NCBI GenBank assembly: GCA_045628165.1
Contig: JAZQPB010000228.1
Location: 368-64,367 of the forward strand
Direction of reading: 5' to 3'
DNA from: Bacteroidales bacterium
GTDB lineage: Bacteria > Bacteroidota > Bacteroidia > Bacteroidales > UBA3824
Length of the DNA stretch: 64,000 nt
Part shown: in pieces, positions 2,908 through 17,626 of the stretch
How the letters are laid out: every line of letters begins with the position of its first letter
How positions within the stretch are numbered: the stretch's first letter is position 1
Translations under genes and position numbers: made by a program
Notes under the pieces: model-generated
Seen by the model: only the letters and a program-made list of their open reading frames with translations
The model's database searches: none
What the model was told of the DNA's origin: nothing

Positions 2908-3344
2908 TGTTCATTAAGTATTTTATTGTCCACTTCTGACAAACGTGCAAAGGCAGCCTTAAGACTCTCGTTTCTGGGAGCCTTGATATTGAAATTAACA
3001 ATGTCAGAATTCACCTCGTAAAGGGCAGAATAATTCATACCCAATTTACGGGTTTCTTCCTTCAAAGATTTTTCTTTCAAAGTTTTACGACAAGTATCAT
3101 ACAAACCCTTTATTGTCTCAAGCAAGAGTTTGAATTGACCGCCAAAAACTTTATAGTCCTCTTCTGTAACTGTTCGCCACTGGGCATACAGCAACTCATA
3201 GAGATTGTCCAAATCCCTATTAAGCCTCGATAGCTGACTCACACGATAACCGTTTTGTGAGACAACCTCCAATCTGTGGTTATAGGTACGCTTGCTCATT
3301 CGCACCATATTCTCTGATATCAATGCTGTCTGACACATAATCAT
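2904..3344 (-). CDS. Hypothetical helical protein, candidate partner/antitoxin of the downstream ORF. The true start may be an internal Met (MVRMSK or MSKRTY).
   Basis: 146-aa ORF translationally coupled to 2506..2907. No family recognised. Confidence 0.4.
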   Translation of the reverse strand: MIMCQTALISENMVRMSKRTYNHRLEVVSQNGYRVSQLSRLNRDLDNLYELLYAQWRTVTEEDYKVFGGQFKLLLETIKGLYDTCRKTLKEKSLKEETRKLGMNYSALYEVNSDIVNFNIKAPRNESLKAAFARLSEVDNKILNEQ

Positions 3345-6256: not shown

Positions 6257-7291
6257 TCACCTAATACCTCTCTGACTTAGTGCCTTCTGATACTCACGGG
6301 CATAGCGCAGATGCTGGTCGTAGGTTCGGGCGAAATTGTGGTAACCACTGAAATCGCTCTTGGCGCACATATACAGATAGTCGTTGTGGTCGTAGTTGAG
6401 CACGGCATCCAGTGCGCTCTGCTCGGCAAAGCATATCGGCGATGGCGGAAGTCCCGGATACTTGTAGGTATTGTATGGCGATTCCACCTCGAGCATCGCG
6501 TTTGTTACACGTTTCACGCCCCAGTTTCCGCAGGCGTAAACCACTGTGGGATCGCTCTGAAGCGCCATTCCGATTTTCAGACGGTTGAGGTAGAGACCCG
6601 CAATCTTGGGCTGTTCCTCTTTTTTCGACGACTGCTCGCACTGTACTATGGAAGCCAGGGTGCTCACCTGCAATTTTGTGAGTTTCAGTTGACTGGCCTT
6701 GCTCTCACGGTCGGCGGTCCAGTAGTCGCAATAGCAGTCGTGCATGCGCTCGATGAATTTCTCGGCCGAGGTGTTCCAGAAAAACTGGTAAGTATCAGGG
6801 ATAAACATGGCGAAACAGGTCTTGCTGTCGAAGCCGTATTTCGACATAAAGCCGTCGTCCTTAAGCAATTGCAAGAGATAAGTGCTGTCCACGTCTATCT
6901 GCTTGGAAACCTTCGACGACAACTGCTCCAGAGTCCTGATATTGTTGAAAGTGACATTTACAGGCTTCTGATTTCCGGAGCGGAGCATATTGATGAGGGC
7001 ATTGTTGCTCATGCCGTCGGTGATCTCGTAACGGCCGGGCTTTATCTTGTTGGGATAGTTTTTCCAATCGGCCACCATCTCGAGCATGGCCTTGTCCTCC
7101 ACGCGGAAATTGGCATACAACGAATCCTTTACCCGCTGATAATCAGCATCCCGGGGAATATACAGATACTTGGTGCCGTCCACAAAAATATTGGGTGAAT
7201 ATATCTTCTGATACATCACATATCCACCCACTCCCGCCGCCAGCAGAAGCACCGCCATCACAGCCAAGGCTATCTTTAGAGTCTTCTTCAT
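6257..7291 (-). CDS. mltG: Endolytic murein transglycosylase MltG (YceG family)
   Basis: N-terminal TM anchor KIALAVMAVLLLAAGVGGYV. C-terminal motifs YNTYKYPGLPPSPI and LYMCAKSDFSGYHNFARTY. Start placed at MKKTLK (the ORF track extends to 7318). Confidence 0.88.
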   Translation of the reverse strand: MKKTLKIALAVMAVLLLAAGVGGYVMYQKIYSPNIFVDGTKYLYIPRDADYQRVKDSLYANFRVEDKAMLEMVADWKNYPNKIKPGRYEITDGMSNNALINMLRSGNQKPVNVTFNNIRTLEQLSSKVSKQIDVDSTYLLQLLKDDGFMSKYGFDSKTCFAMFIPDTYQFFWNTSAEKFIERMHDCYCDYWTADRESKASQLKLTKLQVSTLASIVQCEQSSKKEEQPKIAGLYLNRLKIGMALQSDPTVVYACGNWGVKRVTNAMLEVESPYNTYKYPGLPPSPICFAEQSALDAVLNYDHNDYLYMCAKSDFSGYHNFARTYDQHLRYAREYQKALSQRGIR

Positions 7292-7375
7292 AAGAAACTG
7301 ATAAGTTTTACATTGCAAAGTTGCAAAAAATTTTGATTATCCGCAAAAAATTGTGAGGGGGGAGAAAATCAGATA

Positions 7376-7422
7376 CAAAAACCCATAGTACTCCCGACGC
7401 CAAGGCATCGTCGCACTATGGG
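7376..7422 (-). terminator. Rho-independent terminator at the end of the RM operon
   Basis: Stem cccatagt (7382-7389) pairs with actatggg (7415-7422), with an inner cgacg/cgtcg pairing and a T-run on the minus strand. It is preceded by a second hairpin, tgtcccc-gaag-gggaca, at 7440-7456. Confidence 0.6.
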
Positions 7423-7460
7423 TTAATGTAGGCTGCGCTTGTCCCCGAAGGGGACAGGGG

Positions 7461-8642
7461 TTATAAATAATTTACAAACTCACCGATATTCATTACCTTG
7501 GCTGTAAAAGTATTCTTTCCTTGATTATTGAGTTGCTCTGTATTATCAATATCCAACTCCTTACTACTGTCAAAATGCAACACAGCATAATACGGAGCAT
7601 GTTGAGCATCAAATCCTTTTGAATTTAATTCATCGGCAGTCCAAATCTGGAAAGTTGATTTTGTGAGTTTATATAAATGATGCTCATTATTATTGTGGAG
7701 CAAAACATATTTCAACCGATCGAAACCAGGTTTTACAAGCAATGAACCTTTCGATTCGCCAGCCCTCAAATAGCAAATGCCTTTCTCAATCATCAGCCTC
7801 ATCGTTTCGGGACGAGCATAGTTTACCATAACAGTACTTTCTGTATTGTTGTCCTTTATCCTGCGAAGCATTTCTACCCTACGCTCTTCGTTTTCAATAT
7901 CATTTCTACGACGAATACTCAGGTCGTAGAATTCCTGTTCTCGCTCTATTCCAACGAAATTTCTGCCTAACAAATTAGCTGCAATTCCTGTTGTACTGCT
8001 GCCTGAAAACGGGTCCAAAACAAAATCACCTGCATCAGTTGAGGCAAGAATAATCCTATACAGCAATCGCAAAGGCTTTTGAGTTGGATGCTTTCCACAA
8101 GTTTTTTCCCATTGTCCAACCGCAGGAAGTTTCCAAACATCTGTCATTTGTTTGTCGCCGTTCAAGAATCTCATTGTCCCATAATTGAATTTATGAGTTT
8201 TCTTTTCTGATTTTCTCGCCCAAATGATAAACTCTGTTGAAAAGTTGAAATATTTGCACGACAAATTTGGCGGAGGGTCAGATTTCTGCCAAGTGATAAC
8301 ATTCAGTATCTTGTAGCCCAATTCTGTAAGACAACTGGCTACTGCAAAAATATTATGGTAAGTTCCGCTAATCCAGATAGTTCCGTTTTCTTTCAGTTTG
8401 CCGCGGCAAAGCGAAAGCCATTTCATATTGAACTCATGGATATATTCAGGCGTACCACCTTTGTCCCAGTCGCCTTTATCAACGCATACTTGTTTACCAC
8501 TTTGCACACTGATTCCTCCGTTACTTAAAAAGTACGGCGGATCGGCGAAGATAGTTTGGAAACTATTGTCAGGCAAACTGGCAATAATTTCCATGCTATC
8601 ACCGAGGTGAAGGGCGAAGTTAGGGAAAGTGGTAGTGGACAC
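7461..8642 (-). CDS. Beta-class N6-adenine/N4-cytosine DNA methyltransferase (DpnA / M.MboIC-like second methylase) with an extra ~130-aa C-terminal domain
   Basis: Motif IV IFADPPY lies near the N-terminus and motif I LDPFSGSSTTGIAA lies downstream (beta-class order). The start abuts the stop of the REase gene. Confidence 0.85.
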   Translation of the reverse strand: MSTTTFPNFALHLGDSMEIIASLPDNSFQTIFADPPYFLSNGGISVQSGKQVCVDKGDWDKGGTPEYIHEFNMKWLSLCRGKLKENGTIWISGTYHNIFAVASCLTELGYKILNVITWQKSDPPPNLSCKYFNFSTEFIIWARKSEKKTHKFNYGTMRFLNGDKQMTDVWKLPAVGQWEKTCGKHPTQKPLRLLYRIILASTDAGDFVLDPFSGSSTTGIAANLLGRNFVGIEREQEFYDLSIRRRNDIENEERRVEMLRRIKDNNTESTVMVNYARPETMRLMIEKGICYLRAGESKGSLLVKPGFDRLKYVLLHNNNEHHLYKLTKSTFQIWTADELNSKGFDAQHAPYYAVLHFDSSKELDIDNTEQLNNQGKNTFTAKVMNIGEFVNYL

Positions 8643-9476
8643 TTATTTTATCTCGTTAATAAATTCTTTTACATTAGTCAAATTATATACCCTCGGTATA
8701 ATGTTGTATGCCTCTTGAAGTTTATTCTTTGCACCACGCCAGCCTATGCCGTCAGTTATCCATACAAATTCAAAACCTTCAACGCTGTTTATCTTTGGAG
8801 AAAGTTCTGAGTATGAACGTGCAACTTCGTTGAGTTTACTTCCGCCTGCGGTATAAAAGTTTACTTCAATGAGGTAAACTTTTTGGGCAGTTTCGATTAC
8901 AAAGTCGAATCGTTTTTCGTCCTCGCCTAAAACAGCATTTAAGGTTGGCCATTCTCTTGAATATACTTCTTGACGGAATTTAATGCCGTTTTCAGTAAGC
9001 AACTTTGCAACTGAGTTTTCCATCACATGTCCGCCTCGGTTTTTGCGAGCATTAGTGTCAAGGCCGGTTTCTATACCGAAAACATAATCAACCAAATCCT
9101 TTATCTTGCGTTCTCTGAACAAATCACCAAGTCCAGTACTTTCGACGAACTCAATTACTCCGTCAATACTATTGAACAGAGATTTTAGTTCAATGCACTG
9201 ATTCAATGAATTGAGAACCATTTTCTTGCCTTCGTCTCTTACGGCAATTAGAATCGGCATTACAGAGAAAGCCGACTTATCTCTGTTCCAAATTGTCTCA
9301 ACTGACTTTCTCAAATCAGTTGTTCCTATCAGACTATTAAGAATACAAAGACTTAATTTTATATCGTCAACGTTATTGCCTATCTTCTCAAAATCGCAGA
9401 AGAAATCAAGCGTCTGATTGGTTTCCTGCAATTGAGAGATAAATTCGTTGAATTGTTCTGTTGTATGTGCTGGCAT
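8643..9476 (-). CDS. Type II restriction endonuclease, DpnII/MboI family (predicted GATC)
   Basis: 277 aa. The N-terminus QTLDFFCDFEKIGNNV matches what I recall of DpnII-family openers. It sits between two methylase genes, as in the MboI operon. Confidence 0.7.
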   Translation of the reverse strand: MPAHTTEQFNEFISQLQETNQTLDFFCDFEKIGNNVDDIKLSLCILNSLIGTTDLRKSVETIWNRDKSAFSVMPILIAVRDEGKKMVLNSLNQCIELKSLFNSIDGVIEFVESTGLGDLFRERKIKDLVDYVFGIETGLDTNARKNRGGHVMENSVAKLLTENGIKFRQEVYSREWPTLNAVLGEDEKRFDFVIETAQKVYLIEVNFYTAGGSKLNEVARSYSELSPKINSVEGFEFVWITDGIGWRGAKNKLQEAYNIIPRVYNLTNVKEFINEIK

Positions 9477-9492
9477 TGTCGTATTATTTTTA

Positions 9493-9642
9493 GATTCTTC
9501 GCTTCGCTCAGAATGACATCGTAGATTGTGTGTGTTAGGGAGTTAGTCGGAGGAAGGAACCGGCGGAGCCGGTTCCTTCCTCCGACTAACTCCCCCACTC
9601 TGACAAACCTAACTGTCATTCTGAGCGAAGCGAAGAATCTCT
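9493..9642. repeat. Nested perfect palindrome occupying the methylase-endonuclease spacer
   Basis: The outer 27-bp stem agattcttcgcttcgctcagaatgaca (9493-9519) pairs with 9616-9642. The inner 26-bp stem gggagttagtcggaggaaggaaccgg (9539-9564) pairs with 9570-9595 around the 5-nt loop cggag. Confidence 0.85.
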
Positions 9643-9643
9643 A

Positions 9644-10540
9644 TTACAATATGTTACTTACCATTATTTCTGTCAACTTTCCACGTTTACTGGCATTTGC
9701 GTTTACCATTCTTGTGGCAATTACTCTATCGATTCTGAATTCGGAATACAAATCATCAAAGAAATTATCCTCTGGATTTTTACCCTTTAAATCAGAATTT
9801 GAGAGAATAAATTTTGCATTCGCGGCATCCAATTTTTTACAGAATTCCGCCAATCGGACTTGCTCGCTGTCATTGAATGCCTCTTTTGCATACGAGTTGA
9901 AACTTGAAGTTTCACTCAAAGGCTTATATGGAGGATCTATGTAAAACACTGAATTCTCACCTGCATATTTAAATGTTTCCTCAAAATCTCCATTCAGGAT
10001 TTCCACCTTTTGCAAAACCTTGCTATCAGCTAATATTGTTTCAGGGTCGCATATTTTTGGATTTGCATATCTTCCAAATGGAACATTATACAACCCCTTG
10101 CTGTTAACCCGATACAAACCATTGAAACAAGTTCTATTTATAAAAATGAACAAGGCTGAATTTTCGATATTATCCAAGGCTTTTGTATTGAATCTATCAC
10201 GCTTCGACAAGTAATAATCTTTACGTTTGTCATCATCGAGTGGAATGTATTCGTCTTGAATATTTTGCAGATAATCAATTAATTTCGAAGGATTGTCTTT
10301 AATAGTCTTGTAAACTATTGTCAAATCAGAATTTATATCATTGATAATCGCCTTTTCGATATTGTCATATTTTTGAAGGATATGCCAAAGCACAGCACCT
10401 CCACCCACGAATGGCTCAACGTAGGTAATGCTTTTAGTAGAAAAATCTTGTGGCAAGCGAGCCTCAACTTGCTCGATAAGTTGAGATTTTCCACCCACCC
10501 ATTTTACGAAAGGTTTTGCTTGTATATCTGATTTCGCCAT
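9644..10540 (-). CDS. Dam-family (alpha-class) N6-adenine DNA methyltransferase, DpnM / M.MboIA-like
   Basis: 298 aa. KPFVKWVGGKSQLI (motif I region), EPFVGGGAV, and FYIDPPYKP (motif IV). Confidence 0.88.
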   Translation of the reverse strand: MAKSDIQAKPFVKWVGGKSQLIEQVEARLPQDFSTKSITYVEPFVGGGAVLWHILQKYDNIEKAIINDINSDLTIVYKTIKDNPSKLIDYLQNIQDEYIPLDDDKRKDYYLSKRDRFNTKALDNIENSALFIFINRTCFNGLYRVNSKGLYNVPFGRYANPKICDPETILADSKVLQKVEILNGDFEETFKYAGENSVFYIDPPYKPLSETSSFNSYAKEAFNDSEQVRLAEFCKKLDAANAKFILSNSDLKGKNPEDNFFDDLYSEFRIDRVIATRMVNANASKRGKLTEIMVSNIL

Positions 10541-11034
10541 TTTTCTTTTAAAATGGCATAGAGCGGCACTTAATGTTTAGAAGGGTTCGGCAAAACCGCG
10601 ACGGCAATAAGCACCCAACTCTACACCTTATTTTTTTATAATGTGTAGAATTACAGTTGCTTATCATCCCGTCTGATTAAATTTTGCCGATTTATCTAAA
10701 GAGGATAATAACCTAAATTCTCAATGATTGTTTATTGTGATGACATAAAAAAAGCGCAAGCATCTGATAGAATGTTCACGCTGACTTGCGGTCCACCACG
10801 ACCTTATCCCCAACAGAACAACAGATACTCACGCGATATTGAAATACACATCCAAAGATATGCAAGAGGACCAAGCCTCCCGCATACCAAGGATGATGGT
10901 ATATCATACTCGTAAGCACCATGTTTGCTTGTTTGTGTAGGGATATTGAAAAGTGGTGGTTTCAAGTCAACATAAACAAAGCTTCAATGACGCTTTTAAA
11001 TATGTGTTTGTCATTGCTATTCGCAACGACTTTG

Positions 11035-11065
11035 CAAAGATATGAAAATGAAAATTCAGATCAAA
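11035..11065 (-). promoter_or_regulatory. Well-formed Bacteroidetes promoter (TTTG-N19-TATCTTTG) reading into the 0.5-kb non-coding spacer toward the RM operon
   Basis: On the plus strand, caaagata is at 11035-11042 and caaa at 11062-11065, with a 19-nt spacer. Confidence 0.5.
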
Positions 11066-11076
11066 ATATTTTCAAA

Positions 11077-11271
11077 TTAAATCGCCTCTTCTCTACAATT
11101 CACCTCTATCCTATTCCCGCTTACCATATAATAAACATCTGACTGTCTGCAACCTAATACTTCATAAACAAGCACGTCGAAATCATTGGAATACTTCTCA
11201 AAAGTTTCCGCTGAAAGGTTGAGGATTTCGATTTTTCCTGTGGAATAGTCGATGATTGCTAATTGTGGCAT
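11077..11271 (-). CDS. Small hypothetical protein (64 aa), third gene of the ATPase/DUF4435 operon
   Basis: Its ATG overlaps the upstream stop codon as TAATG (11269-11273), indicating translational coupling. The composition looks like a globular protein. No family recognised. Confidence 0.5.
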   Translation of the reverse strand: MPQLAIIDYSTGKIEILNLSAETFEKYSNDFDVLVYEVLGCRQSDVYYMVSGNRIEVNCREEAI

Positions 11272-12269
11272 TATCCCAAAATTCTATCTATCTGTTTGTT
11301 AATCTTATCCGCACCAGAAGTTCCTATATTGCAATCCGCAGCATGCAAAAGATTGTCTATCTGCTGGTCAAGTTTTATTTTGCCAGACATGAGAGTGGCT
11401 TCCTTGTATTGAACCTCACGGTCTTTTTTTCGGGAGAGTGTGTCGTCGCTTTCGTAAATCTTTTGGATCTCCTTGTGTCGTATGCTGTTGGCCATAGCCT
11501 CTAATGTACGTTTTACGAAACTGAAAACATCATGACCTCTATACAGCAAATAGTATTCGCTATCGGAGAATCCCATTTCCGAAAGTTTGTTTTCTATTTT
11601 GTTGAGACCTTCCACATTGCCTGCAATAAGAGCCTCACAAGATTTGTATTCGTCAACTATGGCTGTCTGGGTATTGACACTGATTGAGCCATCCAAATTC
11701 AGTTTAAGTTTTCCAATGAGAGAATTGAACTTCTGAATTGAATACTGGCTGTTGACATCCCAGCCGAAAAACAATGACAGCAGAAACAGCTTCGACAATG
11801 CCTTGGATATTTGGGCGAGAATGCTCTCGAAATCTATATTGGCATCACTTGACAACACCAACTGATTCAACACATTGCCTATTTTGGAAGAATGGCAAAA
11901 ATGATTCTCTATGGAATGGTAATATGTGGTAAGGATATAATTGCAAGCCTTGATTCTTGCGGAATACTTGCTTTCGATTATCTCGTCGAAATCGCTGTCA
12001 ACGCAAACAATCAGATTCTTACCCAAATGAGAGTCATTAATATGATCAAGGATTGCGCCCTTGCCGGGAGTTTCCTTTCCGTTGATATTGTATGGCGATA
12101 TCCTGAAATCGTATTTGGAATTGTATTTCGACAGGAAAGATTTCCAAAACTGAACATCCAGATAATCCTCCACCCAAACCTGCACAATCTCCCTTTTGCC
12201 CTTAGAGTTAAGTGCGTTTGTGCTCTCGAAGAAAACGGAACTAATTGAATCAATAAGACTTGTAGCCAT
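11271..12269 (-). CDS. DUF4435-like Toprim-domain protein (AriB-like putative nuclease)
   Basis: 332 aa. VQVWVEDYLDVQFW (Toprim Glu), LIVCVDSDFDEI (DxD), and TTYYHSIENHF (the conserved ...iEN motif of DUF4435). Confidence 0.65.
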   Translation of the reverse strand: MATSLIDSISSVFFESTNALNSKGKREIVQVWVEDYLDVQFWKSFLSKYNSKYDFRISPYNINGKETPGKGAILDHINDSHLGKNLIVCVDSDFDEIIESKYSARIKACNYILTTYYHSIENHFCHSSKIGNVLNQLVLSSDANIDFESILAQISKALSKLFLLSLFFGWDVNSQYSIQKFNSLIGKLKLNLDGSISVNTQTAIVDEYKSCEALIAGNVEGLNKIENKLSEMGFSDSEYYLLYRGHDVFSFVKRTLEAMANSIRHKEIQKIYESDDTLSRKKDREVQYKEATLMSGKIKLDQQIDNLLHAADCNIGTSGADKINKQIDRILG

Positions 12270-12275
12270 ATCCCA

Positions 12276-13292
12276 TTACTTTTTTACAGTTCTTACATCC
12301 TCAATATTCTGAACACAAGAAGCCCAACCATTCAAGATAATACTTGGCGCATGAGTCGCAATTATCAACTGACAATTTGGATTCAGGAGTTTAATCTTTT
12401 CAATCAAGATTCTCTGCCAATCGGTATGAAGCGAAATCTCAGGCTCGTCAAGAGTGAAAATAAACTCTCTCCGCTCCTGAAGCAACGCAGTAAGCATTAT
12501 CAAAAGAACCTGCTTTTCTCCAGAAGAAAGTTCTTTGTAAGTCAAGAGATTATCCTTATCACCATTCACCATAAATTTTGGTTCCTGATTGGTTAGCACA
12601 ATCTCTTTGTCAGTCTCCCTGAGGAAATCGTTCATTATAGAAACAAAGAGATTTCTCTGACTGTAAATTTCGTCGTATGTTGCTTTCGACAAGTTGTTCT
12701 CAGCAGCGGCCTTTCCTATCTTTTCTGCAAGACTTCCTATATAATAGGAATACCCTTCAAAAGTACCCTTCAAATCTTCATCAAGCGATGTAACCTCTTC
12801 TGTTCCATACGGAGACACAGTCTTTGAATCAAATGGATCTATAGAGTCCAAATATGTCCCATCCCAAAAATTATCTTTTTCAGGTTCGGAAAGTTGTCTA
12901 TCTCCTACCATAACATAAGAAAAAGACGCCGCTATATTAACATTATCCCATTTTTTGATATCTTTACCTACAAGTTGGTCATCTACAGACACTTTCAAAT
13001 TGCCGTATTGATTATTTCTTTCTGCATTCTTTTTGAGGCTGAGATAATCGTCATTGAAAGATTCATAATAAACAGTACCCTTGTCAGTATCAATAACAAT
13101 AGATTTTACCCTTTTCGCCAAATAATCAGGCAATATATGGTCAGAATGGAAAAACAAGTAAAATACAAACTCAAGTATTGTAGATTTTCCACATCCGTTA
13201 ATACCCGACAATACATTTACCGAATCATTGAGATTCAGGTTGATATCGTAGGTATTCCACAAGCCTTTTATCTGTATCGACTTAATCTTCAT
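12276..13292 (-). CDS. ABC/SMC-type ATPase (AAA_21/AAA_15-like; AriA-like)
   Basis: 338 aa. Walker A GINGCGKST, signature LSSGEKQ, Walker B FIFTLDEPE, H-loop IATHAP. Confidence 0.75.
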   Translation of the reverse strand: MKIKSIQIKGLWNTYDINLNLNDSVNVLSGINGCGKSTILEFVFYLFFHSDHILPDYLAKRVKSIVIDTDKGTVYYESFNDDYLSLKKNAERNNQYGNLKVSVDDQLVGKDIKKWDNVNIAASFSYVMVGDRQLSEPEKDNFWDGTYLDSIDPFDSKTVSPYGTEEVTSLDEDLKGTFEGYSYYIGSLAEKIGKAAAENNLSKATYDEIYSQRNLFVSIMNDFLRETDKEIVLTNQEPKFMVNGDKDNLLTYKELSSGEKQVLLIMLTALLQERREFIFTLDEPEISLHTDWQRILIEKIKLLNPNCQLIIATHAPSIILNGWASCVQNIEDVRTVKK

Positions 13293-13316
13293 AGCGCACG
13301 TTTATTAAATTCCACG

Positions 13317-13324
13317 CAAATATA
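13317..13324 (-). promoter_or_regulatory. -7 box TATATTTG for the ATPase/DUF4435 operon
   Basis: The plus strand reads caaatata, ~25 nt upstream of the ATG at 13292. Confidence 0.45.
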
Positions 13325-13358
13325 ACACTATTTTCCCTCTCCCACAAATCAAAAAAAA

Positions 13359-13366
13359 TAAATTTG
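13359..13366 (+). promoter_or_regulatory. -7 box TAAATTTG for the STAND-TPR gene (divergent from the previous promoter)
   Basis: taaatttg lies ~90 nt upstream of the ATG at 13457. Confidence 0.4.
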
Positions 13367-13456
13367 CATATCTCCTTCCTTATCACTATTTTTACATTGA
13401 AAACTACACGCATATACAAAACAAGTTAATCTATTATCAATCAGAGGAATACAGAT

Positions 13457-16400
13457 ATGGAGACATACGTAGGAAACGAGATGGAGCTCAGTATGCTGAA
13501 GTCGGCATACGGTGATTTGCAGTACGGAACCAGCACCGTGGCGCTGATATCAGGACCCAGGGGCTGCGGAAAATCTACTCTTGTGGCCAGGATGTTGGCC
13601 AAGGCCGGCATAGAGGGCGTGGAGCCTTTCTGCGGGAACGCCGATTCTATCAGCAACATCCTCAGCGACAACAGCTTGGCATGGATAGAGAATATCCACA
13701 CCCTGCCTTCCGATTATCTGAAGGCACTGCTTTCGGCCTGCCGCAATATCGGCAACTCCAACAAGCCGGCCATGATAATACTATCCTGCACCTCCATGAA
13801 CGACGGCGAGATAAACGCTCCGCTCATGACCTTCCTCTCGGAAATAAGAACAGGTCTCGGCAATGCCGAACTGCTTGATATCGAGATGAAAGCGCTGAAA
13901 CTCGCCGACGTGCACTTCCTGATCTCCAAGCTCTATCCCGAAAACGAATTCCACTCCAATTTCGCCAATCAGATCCACAAGGCATCAGCTGGCAATCCGC
14001 TCATGATACACAGCATCCTGGAGCGCATGGAGCAGGAGGGCAACCTCGCCAGGCAGGGAAACGGCAAGTGGCTGGCGGCCACCAACGAAGAGATAATCTC
14101 CGACATAAAATCGCAGATAGAGAGCGAATGGGAGAGCAAGCCAGCTGATGGGGAACTTACTACCAGCACGCCATCAGCTGAAAAAAAATACAACACAGCC
14201 GCAGAGATGGACAGCGCCATAGAGCCGCTCCATCAGCTGATGAAAACATACAAGATGGCACAGGCCCTCGAGATAGCCAATCCGCTGATGGAGACCGCCA
14301 TGGAACTCAGCAGCAACAGCCACATCCTAAAGGCCGCAATAGCCAAATGCAAGATACTCAATTTCTTCGGGCTTTACGACAAGGCCATATCATGCGCCGA
14401 TACCGCGATGCAGGCCACAGACAGCGGAAACAGCGAGAGCCGCGCAATGATCACCGCCCTCAAGGCCCAGGCCATAGGCTATCTGTCGAGATTCAAGGAA
14501 TCTTTCGCGATGTTCGACCTTGCGCTCAACATCGCCCTCGCCTGCCAGAGCCACAGCACCGCGGCGCAGATATATGCGCTCAAAATTCCGTTTCTGCTGG
14601 AATATCCGCTGCTCGACAAGGTGGTGGACGCATACGACCGCGGAATCAGGCACTGCACATCACCCGATTCAGAACGCACGATGTGGGAGCTCCGGCTCTA
14701 CAACCTCTATTACATGCGCTACGTATCGCAGATAGAGGAGGCCATGGCGGAGAGCGAGCAGGTGCTCAGGTATTTCCGCGAGGAGGGCGACGCAAAATTC
14801 GAGGCCCGCACGCTTAATGTGATAGGACTGCTCTACACATCTAAATGCAACTTCGACAAGGCCGGCGAATATTTCACCATGGCCCTCCAGAGGCAAAACT
14901 CCATAAACGACAAGGTGGGCCTGATAGGAATACTCAACAACATGGGCCACCTGAATTTCGACACCGGCAACTATCAGGAATCCATCAGCTACTTCGATCA
15001 GTCGTTCGCGATATCGAGCTCCATAGGCAGCAGGAGCCTGATGCTGGTATCATATACCGGCAAGGGATCGGCATACATATACCTGGGGCAGAACGCCGAG
15101 GCCGAGCAGTGCATGCTGAAGGCCAGGGAGATAGCTGATGGCATGGAAAACAGATCGAGCATGGCATACGTGATATCGGCCCTGGGCGACCTCTACAGCC
15201 ACACCGGCGAAAACGACAAGGCGCTGGAGGTATACATGCAGGCCCTGGAGATAGACCGCGAGCTCGGCGACATGCCGTCGGTGGTGTGCGACCTCACCAA
15301 CATAGCCAACGTATACATAACCACGCGCGACGTGGACAACGGCATCAAGTATCTGGAAAGCATCAAGGACGAGATGCCCGACTACGACAACAATGTGGGT
15401 GTGCACGCCGCCATAGAGAACACTTTCGGAAACATATACTCGGAGAAGGGCGACTCCGACAAGGCCATGGAGCACTACAACGCCGCGCTCGAGATAAACC
15501 TGAAATGCGGCGACCACATCTGCACCAGCCTCAACTACTACAACATAGGCCTGCTGCATATCGACAACAACGACTGGGACAAGGCCGTGGAGTGTTTTGA
15601 GAACGCCGTAAAATACGACCGCCTCTCAGGCGACAAGATGCAGCTCGCACAGCACCTGCAGAGGCTGGCCTACTGCAACCGAATGATAGACGAGCCGCAG
15701 AAGAGCCAGCAGCAGAACATGGAGGCCGTATCGCTGTTCAGGAAGCTGAACCTGATGGACGACTGCGCAATATCGCTCCGCGCCGCCGGCGACGACGCAC
15801 GTGTAATGCAGATATTCCCAAATGCCGAAAAACTACTGCTGGAATCAGCTGAAATACTCAACGAGACCCGCAACTATCTGGAGCTGGCCGACACATACTC
15901 CACCATAGGAGTGATGTACACCGAGCTCAAGAAGATGAAGAAAGCTGAAACGTATTTCCGCATGGCCCTCGATCTCCACACCCAGCACAACATAGGCAAC
16001 TACGAACGCTATTCAAAGATAGCGCAGAGCATGGCGTGGATGTATTCGCAGGCCGGCAAAAACGACAAGGCCGTGGAGGTTTTCCTCGAGATGCGCAAAA
16101 ACAGCTCCAGCGAATATTATCTGGAGACCACGCTCATAATAGCCAAGATACTGGACGAGATGAAAAACGAGGACGCCGAGATCTATTACCGCGAGGCTGC
16201 GGAACTGGCCCTCAAGCAGGACGACCTTCAGCTGAAAACAGAAATATTGGGCGAGGCCGGCGAATACCTGGCCGAAAACGGAAAGCCCGAGCAGGGCATC
16301 CTGATGATAAACGAAGCCATAGAAATGCTCGACGAGGCCGACGACAAGCTCGCGAAGGCCCACATGACCGTGACCCTGGCCGACGCCTACGAGGCCGACG

Positions 16401-17626
16401 GCAAGTACAACGAGGCCATAGAATCGTACATAACGGCCAAGGAAATCTTTGAGGAGCTGGGCGAGAAATGGGAAGTGGCCTGCGCGCTCAACAACATAGG
16501 CTATCTGTATGACACTCAGAACAAATGCGTATTGGCCGCGCAGTATTATCATGCGGCTTTTGAGGAATACAAGAGCCTCGACAGCAAGGAATCGATGGCC
16601 AAAAACCTCTACAACGAGGCCCTAATGAACGAGCGCATGGGCAGCACCCAAAACGCGGCCCAGATATACCGACAGGTGCTCAACTACATAGACGAGGAGG
16701 AAAATCCGGCCGGATACGCCGCCACCGCGCTCAATGTGGCCAAGTGCATGAGCACATACACCGACGACGACAATGTGCAGAAATTCACACAGAAGGCCTA
16801 CGACCTATTCACGGCCATACAGCAGATAGACGATATGATAGCGTGTCAGGAATTCATGGCGCTGTTCAATTATCAGAAGGGAAACCACACCGCGGCCAAG
16901 GGACACCTGAGCAAGCTGCTGGCCATCAGAGACATCAAGCACGACAACACAACCCAGATGCTGGTATACAACAGCGCCGCATCGGTATGTTTCTACATGA
17001 ACGACCTCGATGCCACCATGGAGTATTTCCAGAAGACGATAGCCGTAGCCACCGAGATGGACTCCTGGAAAAACATCGCCCTCTGCAATCTACAGATAGC
17101 CGCCAAGATGAGCATCGACGACGACAGATACAACACCGAGATCACCTACAACGGCAAAACCCGCAAGATCTGGGAGTTCTGCGTGGAGTGCATCAATTTT
17201 GCCATCAAGATAGCTGAAAGCGAGAAAATGAACTCCACCATCTGCGAGGCGTACGAGCTGCTGGCCAACATATACGAGAAAACCGGCGACGTAAGGGAAC
17301 AGCTTCTGGCATTGGAGCAGATAATGATACAAAGCACCGACGACGAGCAGCAACTGAATGTAATGATGAAAACGGCCATAATAGACCGCGACTATTTCAA
17401 GAAGCCCGAACAGGCAAGCGACAGGATGTTTGATGTAGTAAACAAGGCAGAGGAGCTCAATCTCTGGGAATCACGGATACTGGCCACCATCTGGCTCTGC
17501 TACTGGCAGCTGCAGGATTCCCCATCCGACAAGGACGCCATCCGCACCCTCCAGAACATCTCACAGCGGTACGGCTACCTCTTCTTCAAGGTGCCCGGCC
17601 TCACAGATTTTCTGAAAAGACTATAA
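13457..17626 (+). CDS. Large STAND-type P-loop NTPase (AAA_16-like) fused to an ~1100-aa TPR array. No recognisable effector or DNA-binding domain.
   Basis: 1389 aa. YVGNEMELSMLKSAY followed by Walker A GPRGCGKST and LAWIENIHTL (Walker B-like). Many TPR_12-type repeats follow (e.g. LNVIGLLYTSKCNFDKAGEYFTMALQ). Confidence 0.8.
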   Translation: METYVGNEMELSMLKSAYGDLQYGTSTVALISGPRGCGKSTLVARMLAKAGIEGVEPFCGNADSISNILSDNSLAWIENIHTLPSDYLKALLSACRNIGNSNKPAMIILSCTSMNDGEINAPLMTFLSEIRTGLGNAELLDIEMKALKLADVHFLISKLYPENEFHSNFANQIHKASAGNPLMIHSILERMEQEGNLARQGNGKWLAATNEEIISDIKSQIESEWESKPADGELTTSTPSAEKKYNTAAEMDSAIEPLHQLMKTYKMAQALEIANPLMETAMELSSNSHILKAAIAKCKILNFFGLYDKAISCADTAMQATDSGNSESRAMITALKAQAIGYLSRFKESFAMFDLALNIALACQSHSTAAQIYALKIPFLLEYPLLDKVVDAYDRGIRHCTSPDSERTMWELRLYNLYYMRYVSQIEEAMAESEQVLRYFREEGDAKFEARTLNVIGLLYTSKCNFDKAGEYFTMALQRQNSINDKVGLIGILNNMGHLNFDTGNYQESISYFDQSFAISSSIGSRSLMLVSYTGKGSAYIYLGQNAEAEQCMLKAREIADGMENRSSMAYVISALGDLYSHTGENDKALEVYMQALEIDRELGDMPSVVCDLTNIANVYITTRDVDNGIKYLESIKDEMPDYDNNVGVHAAIENTFGNIYSEKGDSDKAMEHYNAALEINLKCGDHICTSLNYYNIGLLHIDNNDWDKAVECFENAVKYDRLSGDKMQLAQHLQRLAYCNRMIDEPQKSQQQNMEAVSLFRKLNLMDDCAISLRAAGDDARVMQIFPNAEKLLLESAEILNETRNYLELADTYSTIGVMYTELKKMKKAETYFRMALDLHTQHNIGNYERYSKIAQSMAWMYSQAGKNDKAVEVFLEMRKNSSSEYYLETTLIIAKILDEMKNEDAEIYYREAAELALKQDDLQLKTEILGEAGEYLAENGKPEQGILMINEAIEMLDEADDKLAKAHMTVTLADAYEADGKYNEAIESYITAKEIFEELGEKWEVACALNNIGYLYDTQNKCVLAAQYYHAAFEEYKSLDSKESMAKNLYNEALMNERMGSTQNAAQIYRQVLNYIDEEENPAGYAATALNVAKCMSTYTDDDNVQKFTQKAYDLFTAIQQIDDMIACQEFMALFNYQKGNHTAAKGHLSKLLAIRDIKHDNTTQMLVYNSAASVCFYMNDLDATMEYFQKTIAVATEMDSWKNIALCNLQIAAKMSIDDDRYNTEITYNGKTRKIWEFCVECINFAIKIAESEKMNSTICEAYELLANIYEKTGDVREQLLALEQIMIQSTDDEQQLNVMMKTAIIDRDYFKKPEQASDRMFDVVNKAEELNLWESRILATIWLCYWQLQDSPSDKDAIRTLQNISQRYGYLFFKVPGLTDFLKRL

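Follow-up and report, generated by a model that had tools for sequence, protein, structure and literature searches.

In the PARIS defence system of Escherichia coli, the ATPase AriA sequesters the nuclease AriB until a phage trigger such as Ocr, Ptr1, or Ptr2 frees it, and the freed AriB cleaves tRNA-Lys(UUU), as well as a few other tRNAs (PMC11464382; PMC12409363). The insertion domains of E. coli AriA (IS1, coiled-coil, and IS2) provide both the hexameric scaffold and the trigger-binding pores. The locus described here lies in a stretch of 64,000 nucleotides from a Bacteroidales bacterium (contig JAZQPB010000228.1, positions 368 to 64,367; "the window") and consists of three open reading frames (ORFs) on the minus strand, ORF1 (ariA, 12276–13292, 338 aa), ORF2 (ariB, 11271–12269, 332 aa), and ORF3 (11077–11271, 64 aa). 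The ORF list of the window confirms the layout described in an earlier, sequence-only reading of this DNA, with a 6-nt spacing between ORF1 and ORF2 (12270–12275) and a TAATG sequence (11269–11273) in which the stop codon of ORF2 overlaps the start codon of ORF3.

ORF1 and ORF2 are a canonical two-gene PARIS pair, of the short-AriA type common in Bacteroidales, located in a low-GC defence island and adjoining a DpnII-type restriction-modification system. ORF3, in turn, encodes a small acidic protein that is conserved, belongs to no known family, and is not specific to PARIS. We place at about 80% the probability that the locus represents two independent units, PARIS and a module made of ORF3 and a leader, which are transcribed together by chance, and that ORF3 is not a subunit of PARIS. 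The first unit (13348–11271) would comprise its own promoter, ariA, and ariB; by analogy with E. coli, an oligomer of the AriA ATPase would keep the AriB Toprim nuclease inactive, and the binding of a phage protein to AriA would release AriB, leading to the cutting of host tRNA and a stop of translation. The second unit would extend from the ATG of ORF3 (11271) to the first restriction-modification gene (10540), and would consist of ORF3 followed by a second promoter and ~500 nt of structured leader RNA. To judge from the aligned loci, this segment, delimited by the start codons of ORF3 and of the first restriction-modification gene, acts like a portable module at the 5′ end of restriction-modification operons of the GATC type, found in several unrelated contexts.

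Identity of the ATPase–nuclease pair

In the Pfam search, ORF1 is matched by AAA_15 (78.7 bits, 8.8e-22) and AAA_21 (69.4 bits, 7e-19), and ORF2 by DUF4435 (63.4 bits, 3.5e-17). The original MacSyFinder rule for PARIS asks for adjacent genes matching AAA_15 (≥32 bits) or AAA_21 (≥27 bits) and DUF4435 (≥27 bits) (PMC9122126); ORF1 and ORF2, on the same strand and 6 nt apart, are called by this rule. The top PADLOC model of ORF1 is AriA (PDLC04164, 3.2e-51), with PtuA as the next family (1.6e-24), whereas ORF2 is matched by the two AriB models, PDLC04165 (9e-30) and PDLC02983 (8e-26), and by no other family. The best sequence match of ORF1 in the PDB is E. coli AriA (8ux9/8v45, E 1e-16), with both ATPase halves aligned. 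These profile searches, which the sequence-only reading had proposed as a check, bear out its view of the pair as a candidate AriA and AriB and of ORF2 as a DUF4435 Toprim protein.

All the motifs quoted in that reading are located at the stated residues. In ORF1 these are Walker A (GINGCGKST, residues 30–38), the ABC signature (LSSGEKQ, 255–261), Walker B (FIFTLDEPE, 277–285), and the H-loop (ATHAP, 312–316), so that the motifs of an ABC ATPase are all intact; E. coli AriA needs Lys39 of Walker A and Glu393 of Walker B. ORF2 carries VWVEDYLD (31–38), VCVDSDFD (88–95), and YHSIENHF (117–124), and its residues Glu34, Asp38, Asp91, Asp93, and Glu121 are invariant in an alignment of 29 homologues. 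The catalytic residues of E. coli AriB are Glu26, Asp30, Asp88, Glu90, and Glu122 (PMC11464382), and the acidic residues of ORF2 match them in order and spacing, an equivalence read without a direct alignment to E. coli AriB. A Foldseek search of the PDB with an AlphaFold2 model of ORF2 returned the AriB chain of 8ux9 (8ux9_A) as the top match (E 2.9e-3, probability 1.0, with a TM-score of only 0.34); it is the sole match below E 0.3, the second-best having E 0.34. Sequence divergence between ORF2 and E. coli AriB is too great for detection by sequence searches, and the link between them rests on Pfam, PADLOC, and the fold search.

Relatives of ORF2 are abundant at the level of the family. A profile search finds more than 6,171 DUF4435 relatives at E ≤ 1e-10, mostly in Bacteroides and Phocaeicola and ~331–333 aa long. 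The clade of the window AriB is rare, with three close relatives (79–86% identity) in 5.8 billion proteins, the next proteins being 25–29% identical. A single-sequence scan of genome contigs with AriB confirmed no relative. One protein, P0038, taken for a close relative by its profile score, was rejected, as it carries an internal duplication and belongs to the common Bacteroides clade.

Occurrence of ORF3 in loci with and without PARIS

The loci used for comparison carry numbers preceded by L (L001, L002, and so on), and the conclusions on ORF3 and its RNA are drawn from about ten of them, all metagenomic, which include six distinct RNA sequences. The closest relatives of the locus are metagenome-assembled genomes (MAGs) of Bacteroidales. 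The closest of all, L008, occupies the same chromosomal site, with flanks that are 95–99% identical, and carries a TPR gene, ORF3, the leader, a D12 methyltransferase, a PDDEXK_11 endonuclease, and an N6_N4 methyltransferase, without PARIS. In blastn, window positions 13548–13362 (98.9% identical) and 11271–9642 (96.2% identical) align with L008, with no match between them; the intervening segment of ~2.09 kb (11272–13361), containing the putative promoter, ariA, and ariB, has only 63 bp as its counterpart in L008.

Other loci also have ORF3 without PARIS. In L001, ORF3 is preceded by a PDC-S01 ATPase and followed by the leader and a DpnII system. In L002–L007, a DUF2442 gene precedes ORF3 and the leader, and the genes that come next are of two kinds, a Sau3AI/MutH-like endonuclease and a C5 methyltransferase in some loci, a D12 methyltransferase and PDDEXK_11 in the others. 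L016, at the same chromosomal site as the window, has two copies of ORF3 flanking gene fragments of PD-T4-9_A, followed by a lone methyltransferase, and in L017 ORF3 is convergent with an HNH gene and a fragment of LmuB. In all of these PARIS-less loci, homology to the window starts at 11271/11272, that is, at the start codon of ORF3. The nucleotide sequence of ORF3 in the window is 94–97% identical to its counterparts in the PARIS-less L008 and L016, as compared to 80–83% for those of the PARIS-bearing L009, L011, and L019. In turn, ORF3 of L018, where the remnant of a PARIS pair is found, is 96% identical to that of the PARIS-less L001.

The TAATG overlap is unique to the window, and L009, L011, and L019 have a 22–25-nt spacer instead. 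In the other loci with both PARIS and ORF3 this region reads TAAT GCC aaaatcaaccaccaccat ATGCC, which resembles the leader preceding ORF3 in PARIS-less loci, ttttcaaccatcacc ATGCC. Compared with positions 1404–1431 of L009, the junction in the window has lost ~26 nt between two ATGCC repeats, and with them the usual short leader of ORF3. Judged from this alignment, the overlap is the product of a recent deletion specific to the window, which would have occurred where the PARIS cassette lies directly upstream of ORF3. The sequence-only reading had regarded the overlap as a sign of translational coupling between ariB and ORF3, an interpretation that does not extend to the other loci with their spacers.

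ORF3 as a gene and as a protein

ORF3 has nine homologues, 66–93% identical, with 30 invariant columns in their alignment, and the variable columns are distributed as 14, 7, and 33 over codon positions 1, 2, and 3. The AlphaFold2 model has a mean pLDDT of 93, with a predicted order of strand-strand-helix-helix-strand. Because of these homologues, the bias of substitutions towards the third codon position, and the confident structure model, ORF3 is considered a genuine, conserved gene under purifying selection. The protein has a pI of 4.25 and a net charge of −6. A profile search of 1.84 billion representative proteins yielded 23 relatives, all of them small and almost all acidic; in the family alignment, 27 of the 28 members are acidic, with net charges from −3 to −25 and pI values of 4.0–5.3. 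One member of the family is 170 aa long, with the domain located at its C terminus.

ORF3 has no match in Pfam, PADLOC, NCBIfam, or PHROGs, and a Foldseek search of the PDB with its model gave no significant match (best E 0.85). The matches in BFVD are borderline only (E 2e-3 to 1e-2, TM-scores 0.6–0.73) and consist of small, uncharacterised proteins from uncultured phages, crAss-like ones among them; they were not used. Scans with the ORF3 alignment found in genome contigs only the two MAGs already known, and none in metagenome or viral contigs; a wider alignment of the family was too diverse for pattern scanning, and three of its distant members had no match in viral contigs. Neither ORF3 nor the leader had a match in plasmid records by blastn, and ORF3, the leader, and AriB had none in phage records by blastn or tblastn. 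Since ORF3 is strongly acidic, it is unlikely to bind nucleic acid, and protein binding is favoured. The idea that ORF3 is an RNA-binding partner of the leader RNA was set aside, as the family is acidic throughout.

The leader, its structured RNA, and the restriction-modification genes

Promoters of Bacteroides follow the consensus TTTG-N17-23-TAnnTTTG, which has six matches in the 64-kb window compared to 1.16 expected. One of them, TTTG-N20-TATATTTG (13317–13348, minus strand), is located 25 nt 5′ of the ariA start, within the segment missing from L008. Another, TTTG-N19-TATCTTTG (11035–11065, minus strand), is found 11 nt past the stop codon of ORF3, and its −7 element is kept in all aligned loci. 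Going by this consensus, we take both sites to be putative promoters; a sigma-70 promoter scan is uninformative for Bacteroidales.

The 536 nt between the stop codon of ORF3 and the start of the methyltransferase gene are non-coding, with indels of 1, 3, 5, and 6 nt, and include 68% invariant columns, compared to 62% in ORF3. Conservation of the leader extends as far as the start codon of the first restriction-modification gene, irrespective of the kind of gene. Its first part, of ~295 nt (10742–11036, minus strand), is predicted to form a long, irregular, closed rod that ends in GCGCUUUUUUU, together with a 5′ hairpin. From the alignment RNAalifold predicted 92 pairs, of which 12 show compensatory double changes, and 97.6% of the cells are paired; none of 500 shuffles reached the observed values, and slid controls gave 2–4 compensatory pairs. 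One of the helices is wholly changed between sequence groups, with the pairing preserved. The minimum free energy is −119.3 kcal/mol in the sense direction (z −8.7), as compared to −83 kcal/mol in the antisense (z −4.7), with many G-U pairs. Because of the G-U pairs and the stronger sense fold, the RNA is assigned to the strand of ORF3 and the restriction-modification genes.

No family of Rfam 15 matches at the gathering level anywhere in the window, and within 10300–11400 the best matches (E ≥ 2.8) are far below the threshold. A covariance model of the RNA (R1) has exactly one copy in the window, in each of L001–L008, and in L018, and none in L009, L016, L017, or L019. A pattern representing its long-range helix, GAAACCACCAC-N135-165-GTGGTGGACC, had 18 matches in metagenome contigs, all of them due to chance as none was homologous by blastn, and no matches in viral contigs. 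A retron non-coding RNA, 6S RNA, tmRNA, RNase P RNA, and an integron attC-like site were considered and rejected, as Rfam was negative and neither a reverse transcriptase nor an integrase is encoded nearby. ARAGORN found no tRNA or tmRNA in the window.

The remaining part of the conserved non-coding leader (10541–10741, minus strand), delineated by alignment, an inverted repeat, and reading of the sequence, contains two hairpins. The first, at ~10536–10557 (minus strand), is GCCATTTT-aaaaga-AAAATGGC and holds the ATG of the methyltransferase in its 3′ arm. The second (10617–10652, minus strand), TCTACAC...GTGTAGA, is placed ~70 nt upstream of it. The two hairpins may control translation or processing.

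The leader is followed, all on the minus strand, by genes for a D12-class (Dam-like, GATC) N6-adenine DNA methyltransferase (9644–10540; Pfam MethyltransfD12, 3.5e-63; PADLOC MTase_II), a DpnII-family restriction endonuclease (8643–9476; Pfam DpnII, 1.7e-100; PADLOC REase_II, 5e-89), and a second DNA methyltransferase of the N6_N4 class (7461–8642; Pfam N6_N4_Mtase, 3.9e-57). The restriction-modification system that the sequence-only reading placed next to the pair is thus real, and constitutes a DpnII-type cassette; the pair may guard this system, as that reading suggested. The GC content is 37–40% in the region 7000–13400, compared to ~50% in its flanks, and the low-GC block lies between a yceG-like gene and a divergently transcribed gene that encodes an AAA_16+TPR protein of 1389 aa. 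Within the locus, only the module of ORF3 and the RNA looks new.

Possible functions of ORF3 and the leader

With PARIS as a mere neighbour, ORF3 and the leader RNA may together control the GATC restriction-modification operon, in a role like that of a C-protein, for example by timing or limiting the expression or activity of the endonuclease when the cassette enters a new cell; we rate this as possible, but with odds clearly short of even. ORF3 is found 5′ of a restriction-modification gene set in seven of the nine context types, and the block from ORF3 to the first start codon is kept as a unit even though the genes downstream of it differ (a D12 methyltransferase or a Sau3AI-like endonuclease). 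A consensus promoter and a covarying RNA are placed between ORF3 and the methyltransferase, and a hairpin covers the methyltransferase ATG. On the other hand, ORF3 is present without the RNA in L009, L019, and L016, and it is found beside genes unrelated to restriction-modification, namely PD-T4-9_A fragments in L016 and an HNH gene with the LmuB fragment in L017. Also, an acidic protein without a helix-turn-helix is not a classical DNA- or RNA-binding regulator.

We can speculate further, and more tentatively, that ORF3 represents an undescribed family of small acidic proteins which, together with the ~295-nt RNA, serves as a control module for GATC restriction-modification cassettes in the defence islands of Bacteroidales. 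ORF3 would then perhaps be encoded by the host to modulate nearby nucleases in the manner of a DNA mimic (its target being the restriction endonuclease or, in this lineage, AriB), and its DNA perhaps a homology joint for the swapping of cassettes. As for the protein itself, our most likely guess is that it binds and modulates a protein of the neighbouring nuclease systems, since its strongly acidic nature makes nucleic-acid binding improbable.

The sequence-only reading had proposed that the three genes may constitute an extended PARIS, in which ORF3 would be coupled to AriA/AriB in translation and serve the pair as an adaptor, a mimic of the trigger, or a brake. We regard this as improbable, in spite of several observations that speak for it and weigh against two units joined by chance. 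Each of the four loci that are informative for this AriB clade (the window, L009, L011, and L019) has ORF3 0–25 nt downstream of ariB. In L018 (positions 1–659), the 3′ end of ariA is followed by the last ~60 nt of ariB and then by ORF3; the nuclease gene has suffered an internal deletion, and ORF3 is kept. A functional link of ORF3 to this AriB clade, specific to the lineage, may therefore exist. The window also has the TAATG overlap, and ORF3, being small and acidic, is in the same class as the triggers of E. coli PARIS, which are DNA mimics such as Ocr. Additionally, since the interval between ariB and ORF3 contains no match to the Bacteroides promoter consensus or to a terminator, ORF3 is probably co-transcribed with ariAB in the window. 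With regard to the PARIS pair itself, the AlphaFold2 model of ORF2 is of moderate confidence (pLDDT 68), its TM-score to 8UX9 is low, and E. coli AriB was retrieved from the PDB sequences neither by phmmer with ORF2 nor by a profile of seven AriB sequences.

However, ORF3 is intact and under purifying selection in at least five types of PARIS-less loci, including the same site in the closest relative; its occurrence without AriA and AriB in L001, L002–L007, L008, L016, and L017 is at odds with a coupled component of PARIS. Its relatedness is independent of the presence of PARIS, whereas AriA and AriB co-evolve (PMC11464382), and the overlap with ariB is not conserved. When conservation of the 64-aa gene downstream of homologous pairs was checked, as that reading had suggested, the gene was found only in the clade with at least 79% identity (the window, L009, L011, L019, and L018); no small gene follows ariB on the same strand in the more distant pairs L013, L038, L039, and L040, among them other short PARIS pairs of Bacteroidales. 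The loci with both PARIS and ORF3 are probably one ancestral arrangement rather than independent support, since their DNA is ~80% identical, and L018 keeps ORF3 although it has lost ariB. We thus prefer the interpretation of PARIS and the ORF3/leader module as two separate units, and the locus illustrates that neighbouring genes and a stop/start overlap are not enough for a system of three components.

Membership of the pair in a different OLD-like family (Gabija, AbiL, MADS3-4, class 1 OLD, or a retron or Septu PtuA-type ATPase with another effector) is very improbable: ORF1 is also matched by the models of PtuA, mad3 (1.7e-18), and ATPase-Toprim_I-B because the AAA_15/21 ABC ATPase is common to them all, but the AriA model is far ahead, ORF2 is matched only by AriB and DUF4435 and by no Toprim_Old, GajA, AbiLii, mad4, or PtuB model of Pfam or PADLOC at E ≤ 1, and the pair has no reverse transcriptase, HNH, or helicase as a partner.

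Exchange of cassettes at the site

Several differences between the window and the related loci take the form of whole cassettes. The endonuclease is swapped between the window (8654–9641), with an enzyme of the DpnII family (277 aa), and L008 (7646–8176), with a non-homologous PDDEXK_11 enzyme (176 aa), whereas the flanking methyltransferases are 95–96% identical. Between the cassette and yceG (window 7367–7374, L008 9448–9871), L008 has an additional 424 bp carrying a small nucleotidyltransferase gene (NTP_transf_2/Polbeta), a cassette-level indel in the same hotspot. On the other side, the gene of the 1389-aa AAA_16+TPR protein (13457–17626, plus strand) is 99% identical to its counterpart in L008 in the first ~90 nt and in the shared intergenic region, unaligned in 13549–13793, and only ~74% identical in 13794–17626, in comparison with 95–99% in the other flanks, which suggests allelic replacement or fast divergence.

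In L016, the two direct copies of ORF3 (1858–2055 and 3086–3283), which agree in the first 57 codons and in ~30 nt of the leader before them, lie on either side of the PD-T4-9_A fragments. Because of this arrangement, the DNA of ORF3 may be a recombination joint between defence cassettes. L010, another PARIS-bearing contig, is homologous to the window exactly from the start codon of ariA (L010 6891, window 13292), with unrelated genes upstream, and breakpoints in this set of genes are repeatedly found at start codons. ORF3 recurs at the joints of defence cassettes that include PARIS, PDC-S01, remnants of PD-T4-9 and of Lamassu, and three kinds of GATC restriction-modification systems.

Comparison with known systems

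The pair of the window resembles PARIS of E. coli B185 (PDB 8UX9, 8V45-8V49; PMC9122126, PMC11464382) in several respects. In both, an AAA_15/21 ATPase is followed by an adjacent DUF4435 Toprim nuclease on the same strand, within a variable defence island; the window pair has the full set of ATPase motifs and the five acidic residues of the Toprim domain, and the E. coli system is the top PDB match of both proteins. The differences are found mainly in AriA, which has 338 residues in the window and 464 in E. coli. Nearly all of the 126 missing residues belong to the middle insertion, which comprises ~153 residues in the window AriA (54–206), compared to ~260 in E. coli, where it builds a coiled-coil and a helical bundle and bears the residues of the trigger-binding pores. 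The shortened insertion is of some interest for trigger sensing, because this region forms those pores in E. coli. The two AriB proteins have diverged beyond detection by sequence only, and the hosts differ as well, E. coli for the known PARIS and a Bacteroidales bacterium for the pair described here.

The pairs of Bacteroides and Phocaeicola, found by tblastn searches of plasmid records with AriB, are closer. They are matched by the same PADLOC models (AriA PDLC04164, AriB PDLC02983/PDLC04165) and agree with the window pair in the size of AriB (332–333 aa), the two-gene layout, and the phylum. Bacteroides finegoldii has an AriA of 282 aa and an AriB of 333 aa (WP_007751218.1 and WP_022275889.1), and Phocaeicola massiliensis an AriA of 310 aa and an AriB of 332 aa. 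The sequence-only reading had called the ATPase compact, which holds in comparison with E. coli AriA, but these even shorter proteins show that its size is not unusual. The window AriA is 55% identical to AriA of the B. finegoldii type in the N-terminal P-loop region and 40% in the C-terminal half; the identity of AriB is 26%. While AriA of B. finegoldii and P. massiliensis spans the 253-position PADLOC model end to end, the window AriA has ~55 additional residues in the insertion, so that it matches the model in two pieces. At the conserved chromosomal site of the Bacteroides pairs, the neighbour is a DMT/EamA transporter rather than a restriction-modification system, and these pairs lack ORF3. 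The pair of the window is thus a routine annotation, callable by a standard defence-finder, which adds one divergent and rare clade to the short Bacteroidales type.

With DpnII-type cassettes the window shares the D12-class methyltransferase, the DpnII-family endonuclease, and the N6_N4 methyltransferase, but here the cassette is preceded by ORF3 and the structured leader of ~500 nt. To our knowledge, neither ORF3 nor the structured leader is known for DpnII systems.

Being small and located 5′ of a mobile restriction-modification operon, ORF3 recalls the genes of the controller (C) proteins. C-proteins, however, are small DNA-binding proteins with a helix-turn-helix, whereas ORF3 is acidic, has no match to a helix-turn-helix family or elsewhere in Pfam, and is predicted to follow another order of secondary structure elements; its membership in the C-protein family was rejected on these grounds. 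Unlike C-protein genes, ORF3 is also set off from the restriction-modification genes by a putative promoter of its own and by the RNA. Should ORF3 and the RNA govern how restriction-modification systems are expressed or established, they would represent a novel form of control of these systems in one of the major phyla of the gut.

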